64,000 nt of DNA from Dehalococcoidia bacterium (GTDB taxonomy: Bacteria; Chloroflexota; Dehalococcoidia; UBA6926). The number at the start of each line of letters is the position of its first letter. Position 1 is the first letter of the stretch. The stretch spans positions 462,030-526,029 of the forward strand of contig CBDCQG010000001.1 of assembly GCA_965220565.1 (NCBI GenBank). Direction: 5' to 3'. Under the pieces are notes generated by a model. It did not search any database. It was not told the origin of the DNA and saw only the letters and a program-made list of their open reading frames with translations. Made by a program: the position numbers and the translations under genes. Below are positions 2,085 through 17,406 of the stretch, piece after piece.

Positions 2085-2477
2085 ATGCCTGGCAAACCAA
2101 GTAGAAAAGATAGAAAACGACGTGGCACTCCGGCTGAGCGTCGGCCCCGTCCGGCCCCGCCCGTTTCACCGGGACGCATCGTGAGGGCCGCGCGTGCCGG
2201 CACTCCTCCTCCTGCAGCACCTGAAGAGACTCGAACGACTGCGTCTGAGCCTGCCCCGGCGGTGCCGCAGCAAACGCCCTCAGCCGCGCAGACGGGTGTG
2301 CGGACACGAGGCAGGGGAGTCGGCGCGCTCCGACGCGGAGCGACGTCATCCGCACGCGCGCTTGACGCGCAGCGCGAAGAGCGGATCCGCCGTGATTCCA
2401 TCAAGGATCTTCGTTCCATCGGCCTCGCCGCCGTTGTCACCGCCGCCGCCCTTGTCGCTGCCGCATTCTTCCTCTAG
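2085..2477 (+). CDS. hypothetical Pro/Ala-rich protein with C-terminal transmembrane anchor
   Basis: 130 aa ORF preceded by GGAGG about 10 nt upstream of ATG; basic N-terminus, hydrophobic C-terminus (LAAVVTAAALVAAAFFL); antisense alternatives are junk. Confidence 0.35.
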   Translation: MPGKPSRKDRKRRGTPAERRPRPAPPVSPGRIVRAARAGTPPPAAPEETRTTASEPAPAVPQQTPSAAQTGVRTRGRGVGALRRGATSSARALDAQREERIRRDSIKDLRSIGLAAVVTAAALVAAAFFL

Positions 2478-2485
2478 CGCCCTCG

Positions 2486-2514
2486 CTGTCATTCTGAGCA
2501 CAGCGAAGAATCCC
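2486..2514. repeat. dispersed hairpin repeat, family 2 (GTCATTCTGAGCRCAGCGAAGAATC)
   Basis: near-identical copies at 44157-44185 and 55309-55340. Confidence 0.7.
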
Positions 2515-2555
2515 CCAACTCATACCATGTCGTGGCGCGATAGAATGAGCGCACG

Positions 2556-4499
2556 ATGAGTATTGATCTCGCCAAGGTCGCCCGCGGCCTGCCCACACAG
2601 CCCGGCGTCTACATCTTTCGTGACGCGCGCGGCAAGCCGATCTACGTCGGCAAGGCCGCCGTCCTCCGCAACCGCGTGCGTTCCTATTTCGGCTCGGACG
2701 CCCTGACGCCGGGAACCAAGGCATTCCAGATCGCTCAGCGCGCTTCCGACCTCGACTGCATCGTCACGACGACCGAGGCGGAGGCCCTGATCCTTGAGAA
2801 CACGCTCATCAAGCGCCACAAGCCGCGCTTCAACGTTCGCCTGAAAGACGACAAGACCTATCCCTATCTGAAGATCGACGTGCGTGAAGAATGGCCGCGC
2901 GTGTACATCACCCGGCGGATGCAGGACGACGGCGCTCGCTATTTCGGCCCGTACGCCAGCGCGTCGAGCGTCCGCAAGACCCTTGACCTGCTCAACAAGC
3001 TGTTCCCCTACCGCTCCTGCACCAAGGAGATTACGGGCACGGATCCGCGTCCGTGCCTTGATTACCACATCAAGCGCTGTCTCGGCCCCTGCATCGGCGC
3101 GGTATCCAACGAGGACTACCGCGAGGTCATCGGGCAGGTCTCCGCGTTCCTGGAGGGCAAGCAGGCCACCATCGCGAAGGACATCAAACGCAAGATGATG
3201 GACGCGTCCGACAGCCTTGAATATGAACGCGCAGCGTTCTTCCGCGACCAACTCAACGCCATCAACCGCGTCTCCGCTGAGCAGAAGGCCGTCTCCACGC
3301 ATGCCGTCGACGAGGACATCATCGCCATCGCCCGCGCCGGCAACGAGGCATGGGCGGAGGTGTTCTTCGTGCGCGGCGGACGGTTGCTGGAGCGCGACAA
3401 TTTCCTGCTGGACGGCACGCTCGGCGAAACGGACGGTGAGGTTCTTGCCGGGTTCATCAAGCAGTTCTACGTGAACAGCCCCGTCGTGCCGCCTCGTATC
3501 CTCACGCAGTCGCCCGTCGCGGACGGCCCTGCCATCACGGAATGGCTTGAGGAGCGACGAGAGGGCAGAAAAGTACGCCTCATCGTCCCGCAGCGCGGCG
3601 AACGCAAGAAGCTGCTGGAACTCGTTGCTGAAAACGCCCTGCAGGGCCTTGAGGCGCTGCGCATCAAAGTGCTCGCGGATGAGGCGGCGACGGAGACGGC
3701 GCTGGCGGAACTCAAGGAACAGCTCAACCTGCCGGAACTCCCGCGCCGCATTGAGTGCTACGACATATCCAACACGCAGGGAACGAACTCCGTCGCCTCC
3801 ATGGTTGTGTTCCAGGACGGGCAGCCGCTCAAGGACCACTACCGTCGTTTCAGGATAAAGACGGTGGAGGGCGCGAACGATTTCGCATCGCTGCAAGAGG
3901 TCATCCGGCGGCGATTCCGACGCTCCGGCGCGCTTGGCAGCGCCGCGCGCGGGCTTGCATCGACAGCCGAGGACGCCGAGGAGGTCATCGCGCAGTTCAA
4001 GTCGGCCCCGTCCCGCAGCAAGGACGAGCGTGATGCCAACAAGAAGGAAACGGCAGACGGCTCGTTCATGACGCTGCCTGACCTCGTGCTGATCGATGGC
4101 GGAAAAGGGCAGCTGAACGCCGTCGCTGAGGTGATGCGTGTTGAGCTGGGTCTTCACCAGATCCCGCTCGCGTCGTTGGCCAAGCAGGAGGAGGAGGTCT
4201 TCCTGCCGGAGATGGCGGAGTCGATCATGCTGCCGCGGACCTCGCCCGCCCTCTACCTTGTCCAGCGCGCCCGCGACGAGGCCCACCGCTTTGCCATCAC
4301 GTTCCATCGCGGCGTCCGCCAGAAGAAGGGGATGGAATCCATGCTGGACGCGGTGCCCGGCATCGGCCCGCGCCGCAAGCGCATGCTCATGCGCCACTTC
4401 GGCAGCCTTGACGCCATCCGTGAGGCTTCAATTGATGACTTGTCCGCCGCGCCTGGCATGACCAAACGCCTCGCCGAACGCGTCAAGGAATACGTGTAG
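2556..4499 (+). CDS. uvrC: excinuclease ABC subunit C
   Basis: 647 aa; N-terminal GIY-YIG motif (GVYIFRDARGKPIYVGKA...LRNRVRSYF), UvrC central and C-terminal HhH regions. Confidence 0.9.
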   Translation: MSIDLAKVARGLPTQPGVYIFRDARGKPIYVGKAAVLRNRVRSYFGSDALTPGTKAFQIAQRASDLDCIVTTTEAEALILENTLIKRHKPRFNVRLKDDKTYPYLKIDVREEWPRVYITRRMQDDGARYFGPYASASSVRKTLDLLNKLFPYRSCTKEITGTDPRPCLDYHIKRCLGPCIGAVSNEDYREVIGQVSAFLEGKQATIAKDIKRKMMDASDSLEYERAAFFRDQLNAINRVSAEQKAVSTHAVDEDIIAIARAGNEAWAEVFFVRGGRLLERDNFLLDGTLGETDGEVLAGFIKQFYVNSPVVPPRILTQSPVADGPAITEWLEERREGRKVRLIVPQRGERKKLLELVAENALQGLEALRIKVLADEAATETALAELKEQLNLPELPRRIECYDISNTQGTNSVASMVVFQDGQPLKDHYRRFRIKTVEGANDFASLQEVIRRRFRRSGALGSAARGLASTAEDAEEVIAQFKSAPSRSKDERDANKKETADGSFMTLPDLVLIDGGKGQLNAVAEVMRVELGLHQIPLASLAKQEEEVFLPEMAESIMLPRTSPALYLVQRARDEAHRFAITFHRGVRQKKGMESMLDAVPGIGPRRKRMLMRHFGSLDAIREASIDDLSAAPGMTKRLAERVKEYV

Positions 4500-4597: not shown

Positions 4598-5413
4598 ATG
4601 GCTGATTTTGAGACTGTTATCTACGAGGTTGGCGACGACGGAGTCGCGCAAGTCACCCTGAATCGACCGGAGCGCCGCAACGCGCTCAATCCGCAGTTGC
4701 TCCACGAACTCGAAGAAGTCTTCGATGCCGTTGAGAGCGACGACAATGTGCGCATCGCCGTTATCACGGGTGCAGGCCCCGCGTTCTGCGCGGGCTACGA
4801 CCTCACCCCGAACCAGGAGAGGCCGACCTATAGCGCGACGGAGCGCTGGGAGCACACCCATTGGCAGGCCATTCTCGTCTCGCGTCCGTGGTACTCCCGC
4901 GTGCCGTGGATCGCGGCGGTGGACGGTCCCGCGGCCGCGGCGGGCAATGTCCTCGCCATGAGCTGCGATCTTATTGTCGCCTCTGAGCGAGCGCAGTTCG
5001 GCGAACCGGAGATCCGCCATGTCGCGCACTCGCCCCACGTTCTGCTGCCGTTCATCACGAGCAATCGCCACCTGCGGGAGTTCTATTACACGGGTGATTT
5101 CATCGACGTGGAAACCGCTGAGAAGTGGGACCTGGTCAACAAGGTTGTTCCGGCGGGAGAGGCGCTCAACGAGGCGATGGCCATGGCGCGTCGCATCGCG
5201 CAGGTGCCGCCGTTCGCTCTCCAGATGATGAAGCGCTCCATCAACGCCGTCTATGACGCGCAGGGCTTCAAGAAGGGGCAGGACGAGCACCTCATGCTGC
5301 GCATGATTGAGTCGCTCACCCCTGACGTTCCCGAGCGTGAGCACCTCGGCAATGTGCGTGTTGAGCAGGGCATGAGAGCGTTCCTCGATGCGCGCGACGG
5401 CCCGTTCCGCTAG
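4598..5413 (+). CDS. enoyl-CoA hydratase/isomerase (crotonase) family protein
   Basis: ORF from 4562; ATG at 4598 preceded by GGAGGG; crotonase fold motifs (VITGAGPAFCAGYDL). Confidence 0.8.
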   Translation: MADFETVIYEVGDDGVAQVTLNRPERRNALNPQLLHELEEVFDAVESDDNVRIAVITGAGPAFCAGYDLTPNQERPTYSATERWEHTHWQAILVSRPWYSRVPWIAAVDGPAAAAGNVLAMSCDLIVASERAQFGEPEIRHVAHSPHVLLPFITSNRHLREFYYTGDFIDVETAEKWDLVNKVVPAGEALNEAMAMARRIAQVPPFALQMMKRSINAVYDAQGFKKGQDEHLMLRMIESLTPDVPEREHLGNVRVEQGMRAFLDARDGPFR

Positions 5414-5460
5414 GGCAGAGACGTAACCGGGACGAATTGGCTCGGTCGTGAGGCTGATGG

Positions 5461-6012
5461 ATGGCCGATAACCAGCAGGGCGGGCACCCGCCCATCATGC
5501 ACGGGCATGGTAAGGCAAAGTTCTGCCTGAACTGTGGCGACGAACTCGCTGAGCGTGAGATTGACGGCGCAATGCGTCTTGCATGCGATTCCTGTGGATA
5601 CGTCCACTACACGGATCCCAAGGTTGCCGTCGGCGTCTTGATCGGTGACGACGAGGGACGCGTGCTCCTCATGCAGCGCGCCCACCATCCCCGCAAAGAC
5701 CTGTGGTCGTATCCGGCGGGATTCGTCGATGCCGGTGAAAAGGTGGAAGACGCCGCGATCCGTGAGACGCAGGAAGAGGTCGGCGTCACCGTCGAATTGG
5801 ACGACTTGCTGGGGATCCATTCAGAGACGGGCAACCGCGTGATCCTCGTCGTGTATCAGGGACACATCGTGGAGGGTGAGCCAAAGCCGGGCGACGAGAG
5901 CCTGGCAGTCGAGTACTTTGGCCCCGACGAACTCCCGGACATGGCCTTTGAACGGGACATCAAGATTATCCGGGACTGGCATCAGCGATTCACCGTGGCC
6001 GCGCCGCACTGA
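5461..6012 (+). CDS. NUDIX hydrolase with N-terminal zinc-ribbon
   Basis: 183 aa; CLNCG...CDSCG zinc ribbon followed by Nudix box GFVDAGEKVEDAAIRETQEEVGV. Confidence 0.8.
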   Translation: MADNQQGGHPPIMHGHGKAKFCLNCGDELAEREIDGAMRLACDSCGYVHYTDPKVAVGVLIGDDEGRVLLMQRAHHPRKDLWSYPAGFVDAGEKVEDAAIRETQEEVGVTVELDDLLGIHSETGNRVILVVYQGHIVEGEPKPGDESLAVEYFGPDELPDMAFERDIKIIRDWHQRFTVAAPH

Positions 6013-6073
6013 CAGACAACATGTGAACGTGAGAGGATTGCAAGAGACCGGGGGATAAAGAAGGAGGGAAGAG

Positions 6074-6964
6074 ATGGCGGACTACGAGAACATCATCTAT
6101 GAACTGCGTGAAGCAGCAGGCGGCAACGTCGCCTACATCACGCTGAACCGCCCTGAGAGACTGAACGCGCTGAGTCGCGGCCTGCTCGCAGACCTCGGCG
6201 GCGCGCTTGAAGAGGCGGACAAGGACGAGACCGTCCGCTGCATCGTCATCAAGGGCGCAGGCCGGGCGTTCTCCGCGGGCTATGACATGAACGTGCAGTC
6301 AGAGGGCAACCTGCCGCGTGACGCCCTGACCATGATCACCAGCGACCACCCCACCACCATGTATCGCCGCTGGATCTGGAATAACCGCAAGCCGGTCATC
6401 GCGCAGTGCCACTCGTTCAGCCTCGCCGGCGGCGGCCAGCTGGCTTGCCACTGCGACATCACCATCGCGGCTGACGATGCGCTCTTCGGCTACCCGCCCG
6501 CGCGCTACGCCAGCGTGGCGACGTACATGATCTGGCCGGAACTGGTCGGCATGAAGAAGATGAAGCAGCTCGCTTTCACCGGCAACATGATGGACGCGCA
6601 GGAAGCGCTTCGCGTCGGCCTGGTAAGCGAGGTTGTCGCGCGAGATGAGCTTGACGATTATGTCTGGACGCTCGCCAACACCATCTCCAAGCTGCCGCCC
6701 GCATCCACGGAGCTCAACAAGCGCGCCATCAACTACTACTACGAGTCACAGGGCATGTTCCAGGCGTACGAGTACGCGGAGAACCTGATGTACGTGTCCT
6801 ACGCCTCCTCGCCGGAGGACTTGCCGAAGGGCCTGCAGGACGTGGATCGTGTGACGGCAGAGCAGGGGATGCGCGCCGGGTTCCAATACATGAACGACGC
6901 GTTCACCGAGGAAGATCAGGCCATCGCCGCCGAGCAGATGGCGCGCCCCAGCCGCGCGCCATAG
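6074..6964 (+). CDS. enoyl-CoA hydratase/isomerase family protein
   Basis: 296 aa; AAGGAGGG SD; crotonase motifs (VIKGAGRAFSAGYDM). Confidence 0.8.
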   Translation: MADYENIIYELREAAGGNVAYITLNRPERLNALSRGLLADLGGALEEADKDETVRCIVIKGAGRAFSAGYDMNVQSEGNLPRDALTMITSDHPTTMYRRWIWNNRKPVIAQCHSFSLAGGGQLACHCDITIAADDALFGYPPARYASVATYMIWPELVGMKKMKQLAFTGNMMDAQEALRVGLVSEVVARDELDDYVWTLANTISKLPPASTELNKRAINYYYESQGMFQAYEYAENLMYVSYASSPEDLPKGLQDVDRVTAEQGMRAGFQYMNDAFTEEDQAIAAEQMARPSRAP

Positions 6965-6988
6965 GGGTCCGCCTACACAGCCAAGAGA

Positions 6989-7020
6989 TAGAGGGGCGGG
7001 TCGCCGCTCGCCCCTCTATT
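6989..7020 (+). terminator. rho-independent terminator candidate
   Basis: GC-rich hairpin AGAGGGGCGGGTCGCCGCTCGCCCCTCT followed by ATTTA, 25 nt after stop of crotonase gene. Confidence 0.5.
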
Positions 7021-7194
7021 TACCCATGACGCCCACGCCTGCCGTGTGCTACATTGGGCGAACCGGGCGGTGCGCCGCGTCACGGCCATAACCCGGTGGG
7101 TGGGGTAGGTGAAGAGTACTCGTTTCGCGCGCCCCTGAAGAGACTCGTGATACATCGTCGTGCGCTGCACTGACGCTAAGGGAGGGAAATTGGC

Positions 7195-8208
7195 ATGAAG
7201 GCACTCGTCTTTGATGAGTACGGCGGCCCGGAAGTCCTCCAGTGGAAGGACATTGATGACCCCAAGCCCGGGCCGAATGACGTCGTGATTGAGGTTAAGG
7301 CTACGGCCATCAACTACAACGATGTCTGGGGACGCCGCGGAGCACCTATGGAGGTGGCTCTGCCCCACATATCCGGCAGTGACGCATCCGGCATCGTCGT
7401 TGACAAGGGCGCCGAGGTCACGTCGCATTCCATCGGTGACGAGGTTGTCGTCCACTGCGGCCGCCCGGCTTTCAACAATCGCACCGGGCAGGAGTGCAAC
7501 ATCTGGGGCTATGACTGGCCCGCGCTCGATGGCGCGCACGGCCAGTATGTGAGAGTTCCGGCGGAGAACGCCGTTCCCAAGCCCACCAATCTCACGCATG
7601 AAGAGGCCGCTTCATTCCCGCTTGTTCTCGTCACCACGTGGCGCAAGCTGGTTGAGAAGTCCAACATCAAGCCCGGCGACCACGTCCTCATCTGGGGCGC
7701 TGCGGGCGGTCTGGGCGTCATGGCCATCCAGATTGCGAGGCTGTTCCGGGCGCATCCGATCGCCGTTGCTTCCAGCGATGAGAAGCTGGAACTGTGCAAG
7801 GATCTCGGCGCGGAGTACCTGATCAACCGCAAGACGCAAGATGTCCGGCAAGAGATGCGCAACATTGTGGGGCGGCGCGGCGCAGAGATCGTTTTTGAAC
7901 ACCCCGGCCAGGCCACCATGGGCCTCAGCGTCCAGCTCGCCAGTTGGGGCGGCACCGTGGTCACCAGTGGCGCAACCAGCGGCTACGACTCCAACATCGA
8001 CCTGCGGCACATCTTCTTCCGACAGGTCAAGCTGGTTGGGTCCACCCTGGGTACGGTCCACCAGCTGCAGGACGCGCTGGACCAGGTGCAGGCAGGTCAC
8101 ATCAAGCCGGTTATCGACCGCGTCCTGCCCATGAAGGATGCAGGCGAAGGTCAGACCCTGCTTGAGACCGAGGCCGTGGCGGGCAAGGTTGTGCTTGTTC
8201 CCAACTAG
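7195..8208 (+). CDS. zinc-binding MDR-family alcohol dehydrogenase / quinone oxidoreductase-like
   Basis: 337 aa; GroES-like N-domain and Rossmann GAAGGLG; AGGGAGGG SD. Confidence 0.8.
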   Translation: MKALVFDEYGGPEVLQWKDIDDPKPGPNDVVIEVKATAINYNDVWGRRGAPMEVALPHISGSDASGIVVDKGAEVTSHSIGDEVVVHCGRPAFNNRTGQECNIWGYDWPALDGAHGQYVRVPAENAVPKPTNLTHEEAASFPLVLVTTWRKLVEKSNIKPGDHVLIWGAAGGLGVMAIQIARLFRAHPIAVASSDEKLELCKDLGAEYLINRKTQDVRQEMRNIVGRRGAEIVFEHPGQATMGLSVQLASWGGTVVTSGATSGYDSNIDLRHIFFRQVKLVGSTLGTVHQLQDALDQVQAGHIKPVIDRVLPMKDAGEGQTLLETEAVAGKVVLVPN

Positions 8209-14642: not shown

Positions 14643-14655
14643 TGGGGTAGGGACG

Positions 14656-15726
14656 CTAATCCCCGTTCACTTCGTCACAGATTTGCCTAAGCAGGTTGAT
14701 GACAGCGTCATCAAAAGGGCCTGTTTTATATGGCCGAGGATTAGATGACGGCCAACCCCAAGCGAACTTCTCAGATAACGCTTGCCAGGCTAGGGGCGCT
14801 CTTTCTTGCGCATTCGAAGAGGTCTCTAAAGCCACAGCACCGTTAAGGCAGTAAATGGTGTAGAGAAAATGATTGTCTTGTGACCGCACACTAAGGGTGG
14901 CGCCTCGCTCTATACGGTGGCTCCAGACCCTGATGGATTGCTTCTCTGACAGTTCCTTTACAAGACTGATCACGTTTCTAAAGTCGTCTTGTTGTGTGGA
15001 CGCAAGCTCATTGACGGTATCGACGAATTTGTCAATATTTTCCACCAACGGATCCGAGGATGTGTTCCGTTGCTGAGCCTGCGTCTCCTGCTCACGGTTA
15101 CGTGCCGTGACCAGATAGTCTTGAGCCTCCGGCAACGGAATGACTTGATCAATGTCTAGTAGAAGCTTGCCCTCATGCCGGTACGCTCGGACTCGGACGC
15201 ATCTGATATCCAACCCCATCTCGTTCAGCCAGAGGACTGATGTTGTGATTTCCTTGTTGAAATCCTCGGAGACGAGAATAATGCGCGGGCGCTCTGTGGC
15301 GATCGAGAAGTCGCCATCTTCTGCCGTCAGGTTAAGATGTTCACGGATTCGTTCTTCAGCCGACTCATTGATGTTCTTGTTTCTCAAGTAGCGAGCGTGA
15401 CCGTCAATGATGCTCTGTGTCTGGAAATTTGCCAGCATCGCCGCATAGCGAATTGCCTGCAACTCCATATGAACGCCGTCACCGCGTTTCAACTCGACAA
15501 CGACCAAATTCCCGGATGAGTCAATGCAAAGCAGGTCAATGTATCGCCAGGCGTCCTCCCAATCCGTGAATTCGTCGGCGATAACGAATAGACCTTCCTC
15601 AATGAATTCTGGGTGCTCGCGGAGAGCTTCTTGGAGGTCCGCCTCTGCGACACTTTCTTCGTGGAATGACGTCCGGTCAATCCCAGTCAAAGTCTTGTTA
15701 GTCATTTCATAGAGCATCCGCTTCAC
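14656..15726 (-). CDS. PD-(D/E)XK nuclease, DUF91/NucS-like N-domain plus about 190-aa C-terminal domain of unknown function
   Basis: 356 aa in a 42-52% GC patch; IDLLCIDSSGNLVVVELKRGDG...ELQAIRYAAM resembles RecB-like D..(D/E)xK nuclease core; no recognisable motifs in C-terminal half. Confidence 0.6.
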   Translation of the reverse strand: MKRMLYEMTNKTLTGIDRTSFHEESVAEADLQEALREHPEFIEEGLFVIADEFTDWEDAWRYIDLLCIDSSGNLVVVELKRGDGVHMELQAIRYAAMLANFQTQSIIDGHARYLRNKNINESAEERIREHLNLTAEDGDFSIATERPRIILVSEDFNKEITTSVLWLNEMGLDIRCVRVRAYRHEGKLLLDIDQVIPLPEAQDYLVTARNREQETQAQQRNTSSDPLVENIDKFVDTVNELASTQQDDFRNVISLVKELSEKQSIRVWSHRIERGATLSVRSQDNHFLYTIYCLNGAVALETSSNAQERAPLAWQALSEKFAWGWPSSNPRPYKTGPFDDAVINLLRQICDEVNGD

Positions 15727-15775
15727 TTCCTTGTTCGCAATTGCCGATCCCCAAACACTTTACTGCCCCCCCTAT

Positions 15776-16090
15776 TCATGAGACTCCCATCCCCTCCCGC
15801 GGCCGTATCTCCTGTAACTGATCCGCCTCAGCGTGTTCAGCATGATAAAGGTCCCAGCGTAGTTGCAGATTCATCCAGAAACCCGGGGAATTGCCGAAGA
15901 ACCGGGCAAGTCGCAGGGCAGTGCTTGGTGTCACACCTCGGCGGCCCCGCACAATCTCATTCACTCGTTGATACGGCACCCTAATCGCCTCGGCCAGGTC
16001 ATGCTGAGTCATCTCCATGGGGTCGAGGAACTCTTGCAACAACATCGCGCCGGGGTGCGTCGGCTCCCTATCTGTCGGAATGCGTACCAT
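15776..16090 (-). CDS. HigA-family HTH (XRE) antitoxin-like protein
   Basis: 104 aa; PTHPGAMLLQEFLDPMEMTQHDLAEAIRVPYQRVNEIVRGRRGVTPSTALRLARFFGNSPGFWMNLQ matches HigA/VapI antidote family. Confidence 0.75.
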   Translation of the reverse strand: MVRIPTDREPTHPGAMLLQEFLDPMEMTQHDLAEAIRVPYQRVNEIVRGRRGVTPSTALRLARFFGNSPGFWMNLQLRWDLYHAEHAEADQLQEIRPREGMGVS

Positions 16091-16112
16091 GTCTTTTCAC
16101 CATTGATGTAGA

Positions 16113-16191
16113 TGGCGTCCCCGGTGGGACTCGAACCCACAACCTGCGGATTAGAAGTCCGCTGCTCTGTCCGGTTGAGCTACAGGGACGC
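16113..16191 (-). tRNA. tRNA-Arg (anticodon TCT)
   Basis: reverse complement gives GCGTCCCTGTAGCTCAACCGGACAGAGCAGCGGACTTCTAATCCGCAGGTTGTGGGTTCGAGTCCCACCGGGGACGCCA; 7-nt anticodon loop CTTCTAA; CCA encoded. Confidence 0.85.
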
Positions 16192-16909: not shown

Positions 16910-17179
16910 CTAGAAGCGACGGATTACTCTGTCATATTCCGCGTGCGGGCCAATCCAGAACCAGACAACATCTCCATCCACCATAAGAGCCAGGGCACGA
17001 TAGTGCTCTCCGATCCGCACGGAATAGAGCGGCTCCCTCACTCCAACTCTCTTGAATGCGAGACTCCGGTGATATGGGTCTGTGCGAAAGAATTCGTATG
17101 CGCGCTTGGCTTGCTCTTGTACGGACTCAGGCAGTCGCCTGAACTCAATCCAGAAGTTGCGCTCAGTGAACGAGCGCAC
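16910..17179 (-). CDS. type II toxin, RelE/ParE superfamily
   Basis: 89 aa, GTG start; FWIEFRRLPESVQ...SVRIGEHYRALALMVDGDVVWFWIGPHAEYDR typical of RelE/ParE-fold toxins; start overlaps antitoxin stop by 1 nt. Confidence 0.7.
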   Translation of the reverse strand: MRSFTERNFWIEFRRLPESVQEQAKRAYEFFRTDPYHRSLAFKRVGVREPLYSVRIGEHYRALALMVDGDVVWFWIGPHAEYDRVIRRF

Positions 17180-17406
17180 TAGCCAAAATCTTCCTCACGA
17201 AGAGGCTTGGTGCGCCCGGCTTTATGCTCAGCGCGAACCTTTTCTGCCATCTTTTCGAGCCACTCTTGGGATTCCGGGGACGCAAGCAATTCGTCCCACT
17301 TCTTGTCTGCATCCATTTCTTCGAGGATTACCGCCGCGAGAGTTTCTTGCTTCTCTTCAGGCAGTTCCGCTGCCTTTTCAAACGCCTGTTGAAGTAGCTT
17401 ATTCAT
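17179..17406 (-). CDS. type II antitoxin (addiction-module antitoxin paired with RelE/ParE toxins)
   Basis: 75 aa from ATG 17404-17406 (MNKLLQQAFEKAAELPEEKQETLAAVILEEM...); track merges it into an over-long 244-aa ORF. Confidence 0.65.
   Translation of the reverse strand: MNKLLQQAFEKAAELPEEKQETLAAVILEEMDADKKWDELLASPESQEWLEKMAEKVRAEHKAGRTKPLREEDFG

Follow-up and report, generated by a model that had tools for sequence, protein, structure and literature searches.

Does an antitoxin-like gene that stands directly in front of a nuclease gene form a functional module with it, or are the two unrelated neighbours? This question is raised by a low-GC islet in a 64,000-nucleotide stretch of DNA from a Dehalococcoidia bacterium (NCBI GenBank assembly GCA_965220565.1, contig CBDCQG010000001.1, positions 462,030 to 526,029; hereafter the window), in which a gene for a HigA-family helix-turn-helix (HTH) protein and a gene for a NucS-like PD-(D/E)XK nuclease follow a tRNA-Arg(TCT) gene. 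An initial annotation of this DNA had proposed that they constitute a novel toxin or defence pair, regulator first and effector second, in which HigA keeps the nuclease in check. The comparison of orthologous loci favours another answer: the best overall explanation, to which we give a probability of roughly 0.6, is that two unrelated neighbours share the islet, a solitary defence nuclease and a higA relic of a higB-higA (higBA) toxin-antitoxin (TA) cassette. The features on which the argument draws are the following (positions in the window).

14643-16112, 1.47 kb: islet between the CoA-transferase gene and tRNA-Arg(TCT), with the HigA-family HTH gene and the NucS-like PD-(D/E)XK nuclease gene.
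16113-16189, minus strand: tRNA-Arg(TCT), predicted by ARAGORN, intact and co-oriented with higA and the nuclease gene.
16091-16112, minus strand: junction of 22 nt from the tRNA 3' end to the higA ATG, the scar of the deletion of the higBA promoter/operator and higB.
15776-16090, minus strand: orphan higA, intact, 104 aa, a HigA-family HTH antitoxin gene left from a higBA cassette.
15718-15775, minus strand: spacer of 58 nt between higA and the nuclease gene, with the ribosome-binding site (RBS) AAGGAAG and no promoter-like or operator-like site found.
14656-15717, minus strand: nuclease gene, 353 aa plus stop, a candidate single-gene defence nuclease with a PDC-S11-type N-terminal module.
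15118-15717, minus strand: N-terminal module of the nuclease (aa 1-200), made up of a NucS-like PD-(D/E)XK core, which contains D61/E75/K77, and a conserved alpha/beta middle region behind it (aa 135-200).
15052-15117, minus strand: inter-domain linker helix (aa ~201-222), of low model confidence, the putative recombination boundary.
14659-15054, minus strand: C-terminal domain of the nuclease (aa 222-353), allelic class I, a predicted alpha/beta two-layer fold belonging to no Pfam family.

The loci compared comprise 82 obtained by looking up exact proteins and scanning GTDB species genomes, and 5 added later by look-ups; the presence of HigA and HigB was scored by phmmer on all six-frame open reading frames (ORFs). 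The closest loci all come from Dehalococcoidia metagenome-assembled genomes, and ten related ones (L001-L010) were compared with the window. In nine of these ten (L001 and L003-L010) the nuclease gene lies at the tRNA site, within a gene order shared with the window: hpt, DUF6391, tRNA-Arg(TCT), nuclease, CoA-transferase, rhomboid and folB. It is the nuclease that is kept at this tRNA-Arg gene, higA being present in only some of the relatives. The nuclease stands alone in five loci (L004-L008), its ATG 22-60 nt after the tRNA and with no HigA; a complete higB-higA separates tRNA and nuclease in three (L001, L003 and L010), and L009, like the window, has only higA between them. Of the 82 loci, 4 have HigA immediately before the nuclease, as does the window, all of them from one clade and at one tRNA site. 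Upstream neighbours at 67 non-syntenic loci are chorismate synthase (14), QueG (10), MerR (4) and assorted enzymes, and none of the 67 is a HigA or HTH_3 protein. Alone at L004-L008 and preceded by heterogeneous neighbours at these 67 loci, the nuclease gene shows a single-gene organisation with no conserved partner.

The origin of the HTH gene is indicated by its relatives. As the initial annotation had recognised, the protein encoded at 15776-16090 belongs to the HigA family, matching TIGR02607 ('HigA family antitoxin', E=3e-31, 107 bits against a cutoff of 47.7) and HTH_3 (E=7e-10), and it is 93% identical to the HigA of L003, which sits behind HigB. As in HigB-HigA type II TA systems, the orthologues in L001, L003 and L010 lie directly behind a HigB toxin (PF05015, E=1.8e-15), and the promoter regions of all three intact cassettes contain an operator-like palindrome, the inverted repeat TAGCA-N-TGCTA. 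The window differs from such a system in that the toxin gene and the promoter/operator are deleted, which makes higA an orphan. It had been noted from the start that nothing precedes this gene, and indeed no HigB was found upstream of it, the 22 nt to the tRNA 3' end being all that lies there; the palindrome has no match in the window either, although the true HigA operator may differ from it.

In L003, a 715-bp higBA unit is flanked on each side by the same 30 nt of the tRNA 3' end, TTGTGGGTTCGAGTCCCACCGGGGACGCCA, without a mismatch (L003 5199-5228 and 5914-5943), and what follows the second repeat is homologous to the spacer that separates tRNA and nuclease in L004 and L005, two loci without HigBA. 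Consequently, higBA is a separate cassette that was inserted before a pre-existing nuclease gene. The L003 unit contains only higB-higA and its promoter, with no integrase, and is either a minimal integrative cassette or an addictive remnant of a larger decayed element.

The junctions record what happened to higB. In the window, TCTACATCAATGGTGAAAAGAC is followed directly by the higA ATG, whereas in L001 the tRNA is followed by CATTTGCCTCACCGATGAAAAGAC, then by 352 nt comprising the promoter and higB, and then by GAAGCAGAC and the ATG. The 22 nt after the tRNA in the window (ending in TGAAAAGAC before the ATG) correspond to the opening ~24 nt of the L001 cassette (ending in GATGAAAAGAC), and the join lies at AGAC, a motif that also precedes the higA ATG in L001 and L003. 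We propose that a cassette of ~700 bp entered the 3' end of the tRNA gene, ahead of the nuclease, and that in the lineage of the window a short deletion between AGAC microhomologies would have taken the higBA promoter/operator together with higB. The junction of L009 differs, since it keeps TGATGAGGA from the higB stop and the higA RBS; the two losses of higB were therefore independent events. About 4 kb upstream of the tRNA, L009 also has a second, divergent higB-higA pair (727-1386), which could supply or absorb cross-talk with the orphan HigA.

These loci bear directly on the proposal that HigA is the antitoxin or the transcriptional controller of the nuclease in an inverted two-gene toxin/defence module. 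Such a module would have to lack its regulator at L004-L008 and at L002, where the nuclease occupies another site without HigA, and at all 67 other loci, none of which has HTH_3 upstream; its regulator would have its own HigB at three loci, would arrive in L003 as part of a discrete cassette between tRNA repeats, and would act in the window without the operator-like palindrome of higBA. What speaks for the pair is that the two genes are co-oriented and 58 nt apart, that the promoter scan found no separate nuclease promoter, and that higA remains intact in two lineages with different higB-loss junctions (the window and L009), with omega values of 0.07-0.11 in all comparisons, although pairwise values do not isolate the period after the loss of higB. 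Taken together, we consider it very unlikely that HigA controls the nuclease, and the regulator-effector relationship proposed initially is not supported. Even less credible, and the least likely of the readings weighed here, is that the pair is the remnant of a restriction-modification system controlled by a C-protein and deprived of its methyltransferase. An HTH gene directly upstream of a PD-(D/E)XK nuclease recalls that layout, but the HTH protein is a HigA equivalog (TIGR02607) and not a C-protein, and HigB accompanies it in relatives. In agreement with the initial annotation, no methyltransferase adjoins the nuclease in the window; the same is true of the ten related loci, and no methyltransferase is conserved next to other homologues of the nuclease.

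If the genes are taken as two independent neighbours, read-through from tRNA-Arg would most likely account for the transcription of higA, and probably for that of the nuclease: the short spacers of L004-L008 cannot accommodate a conventional promoter, which implies co-transcription of the nuclease with the tRNA, and no promoter-like site was found in the window. In L006, for example, the nuclease ATG lies just 22 nt after the co-oriented tRNA-Arg. A scan for sigma-70 promoters detected nothing on the minus (coding) strand, but Chloroflexota promoters may differ from those scanned.

What, then, is the nuclease? Its longest ORF (14656-15726, minus strand) matches Pfam NucS_C, formerly DUF91 (E=8e-9 over aa 28-126). 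Judging from the sequence, the true start is almost certainly the ATG at 15717, since it is preceded by AAGGAAG, since orthologues begin with MLYEM, and since a 100%-identical database protein (P0001) has 353 aa. The gap between higA and the nuclease ORF described initially is therefore 58 nt rather than 49 nt. In the numbering of the 353-aa form, D61 (nt 15535-15537), E75 (15493-15495) and K77 (15487-15489), as well as Q87 and Y91, are the same in all of 55 homologues and fall on the NucS catalytic motif when aligned with it, so that the RecB/NucS-like nuclease core first proposed from the letters of the DNA is well founded. Other PD-(D/E)XK proteins matched by the nuclease include AspBHI, SduA, FokI and Can2. 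Membership of Shedu was considered and rejected: SduA (DUF4263) has only the core fold in common with the nuclease (E-values from 5e-4 to 0.04), its flanking domains differ, and no family-level match to DUF4263 was found. An AlphaFold2 model built with the 55 homologues (pLDDT 88) consists of two bodies joined by a low-confidence helix at aa ~200-222, with pLDDT of 48-59 over aa 190-220; a Foldseek search of the PDB with this two-domain model gave no match below E=0.001.

The catalytic PD-(D/E)XK domain and the D...ExK...Q..Y motif are common to the nuclease and NucS/EndoMS (PDB 2vld, 5gke). One could thus imagine a housekeeping mismatch repair endonuclease of the NucS/EndoMS type that lies near the tRNA by chance, all the more as some database records call the homologues 'endonuclease NucS' and as synteny is kept across nine related loci. 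However, the nuclease scores only 37 bits against the NCBIfam NucS equivalog NF003270 (cutoff 216) and 32 bits against NF002876 (cutoff 252), and only the catalytic half aligns (NucS residues 126-195). Only ~25 residues precede this half in the window nuclease, which lacks the N-terminal DNA-binding domain of NucS and adds a middle region and a C-terminal domain, and we rejected it as a NucS orthologue. Genomically it also behaves like a mobile defence gene: its composition is foreign in all relatives, its synonymous divergence is saturated, its C-terminal alleles are swapped between otherwise 97%-identical neighbourhoods, it has been relocated in L002, its homologues are common on plasmids and it matches PADLOC models of the PDC-S11 family. 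A repair function appears highly improbable to us.

The PADLOC matches place the nuclease in a family that has already been catalogued, so the pair announced initially is not novel on this side either. Five PDC-S11 models match the protein (PDLC04909, E=1.3e-86; 04915, E=2e-69; 04913, E=4e-57; 04910, E=1e-46; 04916, E=1e-29), but these matches are confined to aa 5 to ~242-286, and the family assignment holds for about the first 240 residues only. With at least 4,982 of 8,000 scored candidates at E<=0.001, the family is large, and homologues occur on 352 plasmid records, mainly from Klebsiella and E. coli, many of these plasmids being conjugative. The canonical members of PDC-S11 combine NucS with DUF4268, whereas the window nuclease carries a different C-terminal domain. 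This is illustrated by P0064, the representative of a major branch, which is 49% identical to the nuclease over the N-terminal 62% of the query, matches PDLC04913 over its full length and contains Pfam DUF4268 at aa 230-367; the models 04911, 04912 and 04914, which cover the middle region and DUF4268, match P0064 (aa 149-372) and not the window nuclease. The catalytic residues are likewise invariant in these DUF4268-type homologues (D63/E77/K79).

One protein with NucS and DUF4268 has been characterised. MdgA (modification defence gene A; Cell Host Microbe 2025) has been shown experimentally to defend against phage T4; it degrades T4 DNA containing glucosyl-hydroxymethylcytosine (glc-HMC), the purified enzyme acts weakly on unmodified T4-GT7 DNA, and the substitution E77A, encoded by a mutagenic primer reading VIV(E>A)NK, inactivates it (PMC12366544). 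Like MdgA, the window nuclease is encoded by a single ORF without a partner gene, has an N-terminal NucS-like domain and bears its catalytic Glu in an hhh-E-x-K strand (E77 in VIVENK in MdgA, E75 in VVVELK here). The two differ in that MdgA has DUF4268 and an experimentally established activity on glc-HMC DNA, and the window nuclease another C-terminal domain and a predicted activity. A 27-mer derived from the MdgA primer gave no exact match in metagenome contigs.

We thus regard the nuclease as a single-gene defence candidate of the PDC-S11 family, related to MdgA. A function in defence is probable, given the first ~240 residues shared with PDC-S11, the solitary low-GC gene and the frequency of homologues on plasmids, and the stand-alone anti-phage effector that the initial annotation had put forward as one option gains credibility from the PDC-S11 match (E=1e-86), the intact PD-(D/E)XK site, the solitary homologues and the 352 plasmid records. 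The nuclease would be a stand-alone restriction-type PD-(D/E)XK endonuclease whose first ~220 residues form the module that defines PDC-S11 and whose C-terminal domain would pick the target, so that foreign DNA could be restricted without a partner methyltransferase or antitoxin. By analogy with MdgA, the likeliest mode would be a type IV-like reading of a DNA feature or modification that is missing from the host; because the feature recognised would be one that the host lacks, neither an antitoxin nor a methylase would be needed. That the nuclease is specifically modification-dependent is a more tentative proposition, to which we give somewhat less than even odds.

A different trigger can also be envisaged for a defence effector of this kind, such as Shedu-like sensing of free or foreign DNA ends, or abortive infection set off by a C-terminal protein or ligand sensor. 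The fold group of the C-terminal domain includes proteins that do not bind DNA (frataxin), as does that of its DUF4268 counterpart (type III secretion system chaperones), yet MdgA, the sole characterised protein with such an N-terminal architecture, cuts modified T4 DNA directly in vitro; moreover, the similarity to SduA is limited to the generic PD-(D/E)XK core, and the N-terminal sensing domains of SduA are absent from the nuclease. We therefore consider another trigger unlikely, and continue with the restriction-type nuclease.

By sequence, the C-terminal domain is distinct from DUF4268. No Pfam family matches it, DUF4268 included, and an hhalign comparison of 114 domains of the window type with 112 DUF4268 domains returned a probability of 1%. 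A single-sequence search of 1.84 billion representatives, too insensitive to reveal a wider distribution, recovered the domain's own cluster (P0003) and one weak match. The latter, the sole match outside the query cluster, is P0236, a protein of 2640 aa with four weak, repeated matches (residues ~1187-1236) to residues 29-81 of the query (E=6e-5), which could reflect a repeated module or be spurious.

It is in this domain that the alleles of the nuclease differ most. The flanking CoA-transferase and rhomboid proteins are 90-98% identical between the window and L003-L010, with synonymous divergence (dS) of 0.3-0.6. The N-terminal 210 residues of the nuclease are 76-86% identical, with saturated synonymous divergence (pS 0.72-0.81) and omega of 0.05-0.14. 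The C-terminal domains fall into three classes, with 15-43% identity between classes: class I in the window, L001 and L002 (60-64% identical), class II in L003, L004, L005 and L009 (92-96%) and class III in L006, L007, L008 and L010 (61-83%). The classes are nevertheless mutually homologous, 114 of 120 domains being linked by BLAST in one component. They cut across the relatedness of the genomes and the flanks: the CoA-transferase of the window is 96-98% identical to those of L003, L004 and L005, yet its nuclease shares its C-terminal class with the most distant loci, L001 and L002.

The two halves of the gene have also diverged to different degrees. Between L003 and L009, nuclease dS is 0.75 in the N-terminal half versus 0.20 in the C-terminal half, and between L006 and L008 it is saturated in the former versus 0.44 in the latter. 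Aligned with L003, the window has a nucleotide identity of 0.87-0.95 across the flanks and 0.84 across higA; in the nuclease gene the value is 0.69-0.80 for the 5' part and falls to 0.43-0.50 for the 3' part, before it recovers to 0.93 at the CoA-transferase stop. In a sliding comparison the drop, from 0.80 to 0.50, comes at ~15100 and coincides with the modelled linker. These data suggest that the C-terminal domain is a swappable recognition module. The simplest reading is a long-lived hotspot at which recombination with a broader gene pool of lower GC content replaces nuclease alleles as well as, separately, the halves of the gene. In this account, the nuclease has been at the locus since before the species diverged; recombination has exchanged its alleles and, separately, the N- and C-terminal halves, and this keeps its composition foreign. 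We hold this evolutionary account of the locus, including the arrival and decay of the higBA cassette, to be very probable.

The base composition agrees with the islet described initially. GC content is 0.525 for the islet and 0.508 for the nuclease ORF, whereas the window averages 0.619 (a background of ~62%, not the 65% first estimated). Compared with all 1062-nt windows, the nuclease ORF has a z-score of -4.05, and it is the region of lowest GC content in the 64 kb; the lowest values reach 0.487 over 300 nt and 0.40 over 100 nt. The gene is GC-poor in every relative (0.51-0.565 versus 0.61-0.65 for its neighbours); native GC content is thus seen in none of them, and the catalytic residues are nowhere lost among the homologues aligned.

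Several observations weigh against parts of this explanation. Intact higA has been kept twice after independent losses of higB, in the window and in L009, and it may thus have a role, possibly in the control of the nuclease. No promoter was found for either higA or the nuclease, so that their expression is a prediction. The gene-wide omega of the C-terminal domain (0.2-0.33) corresponds to relaxed constraint and not to positive selection. Being unlike DUF4268, this domain may not confer the substrate specificity of MdgA, the link of MdgA to P0064 and the PDC-S11 family is itself drawn from architecture and motif position, and PDC-S11 has candidate status only.

As proposed initially, the tRNA-Arg side of the islet is an insertion hotspot, its content varying among related loci; the tRNA-Arg(TCT) gene itself is where it had been reported, except that it ends at 16189 and not 16191. 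More precisely, what lies downstream of tRNA-Arg(TCT) is a small hotspot of variable defence and TA genes. The marks of a tRNA-integrated island, a distal repeat of the tRNA 3' end and an integrase, are both lacking for the islet in the window: no second copy of the tRNA 3' end was found in the 64 kb, even with 3 mismatches allowed, no integrase lies within the islet, and a search for repeats that could serve as attachment sites in the window returned only short ones at chance level.

Other rearrangements were observed at or near the same site. In L004, the product of an extra minus-strand gene between the nuclease and the CoA-transferase (5406-6305) is a restriction endonuclease of the Mrr_cat type (E=1e-15) that bears a zinc ribbon at its C terminus, and the same spot therefore collects other type IV-like nucleases. 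In L007, the full CoA-transferase gene is separated from the nuclease by a CoA-transferase fragment of 63 aa and a 'Septum_form' ORF of 145 aa (7068-7838), which points to a rearrangement or duplication at the hotspot's 3' border. In L002, the nuclease gene lies between rhomboid and folB, which adjoin in the window, and is preceded by an unrelated 168-aa ORF for which no Pfam or PADLOC match was found (5377-7074 for this segment); the tRNA-Arg site of this locus (2272-3258) holds ~1 kb of unrelated high-GC sequence instead of the nuclease. At the loci from other Dehalococcoidia (L011-L082 and L085-L087), the nuclease gene is directly downstream of chorismate synthase in 14 of 67 cases and beside QueG in 10 of 67, and these positions suggest further preferred insertion sites. 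Beyond the tRNA, the interval from DUF6391 to hpt in the window contains a second small TA-like pair on the minus strand (16910-17406), made up of a ParE-like toxin (16910-17179; PF24732, E=5e-9) and an overlapping upstream ORF of 75 aa (17179-17406) for which no family match was found. This segment has a GC content of 0.51-0.55, is absent from L001 and L003, and aligns at only 0.5-0.6 identity in L005.

A bolder possibility is that the locus works as a population-level specificity switch, in which a constant PDC-S11 catalytic module, recombined at the linker with at least three deeply diverged C-terminal recognition cassettes and with independently diverged N-terminal alleles, would allow close relatives to restrict different features of phage DNA; as a further step, the orphan HigA might have been co-opted to tune a nuclease expressed by tRNA read-through. 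We judge this extended scenario rather unlikely.

What is new here is a catalytic module of the PDC-S11/MdgA type with a C-terminal domain other than DUF4268, allelically swapped at a tRNA-linked hotspot. To our knowledge, the defence biology of the Dehalococcoidia, a group rich in uncultivated members, is almost wholly unknown. The islet illustrates that an orphan antitoxin beside a nuclease can mimic a new two-gene system although it is the decay product of a HigBA cassette next to an older single-gene nuclease, and that the comparison of orthologous loci settles whether two such genes are a pair or neighbours. For the family, it indicates that the PDC-S11 module can also be joined to a large, unannotated C-terminal domain of another kind, one exchanged among alleles at a fixed chromosomal site. 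If this domain indeed sets specificity, the alleles would constitute a natural domain-swap set for studying the type IV-like reading of phage DNA.

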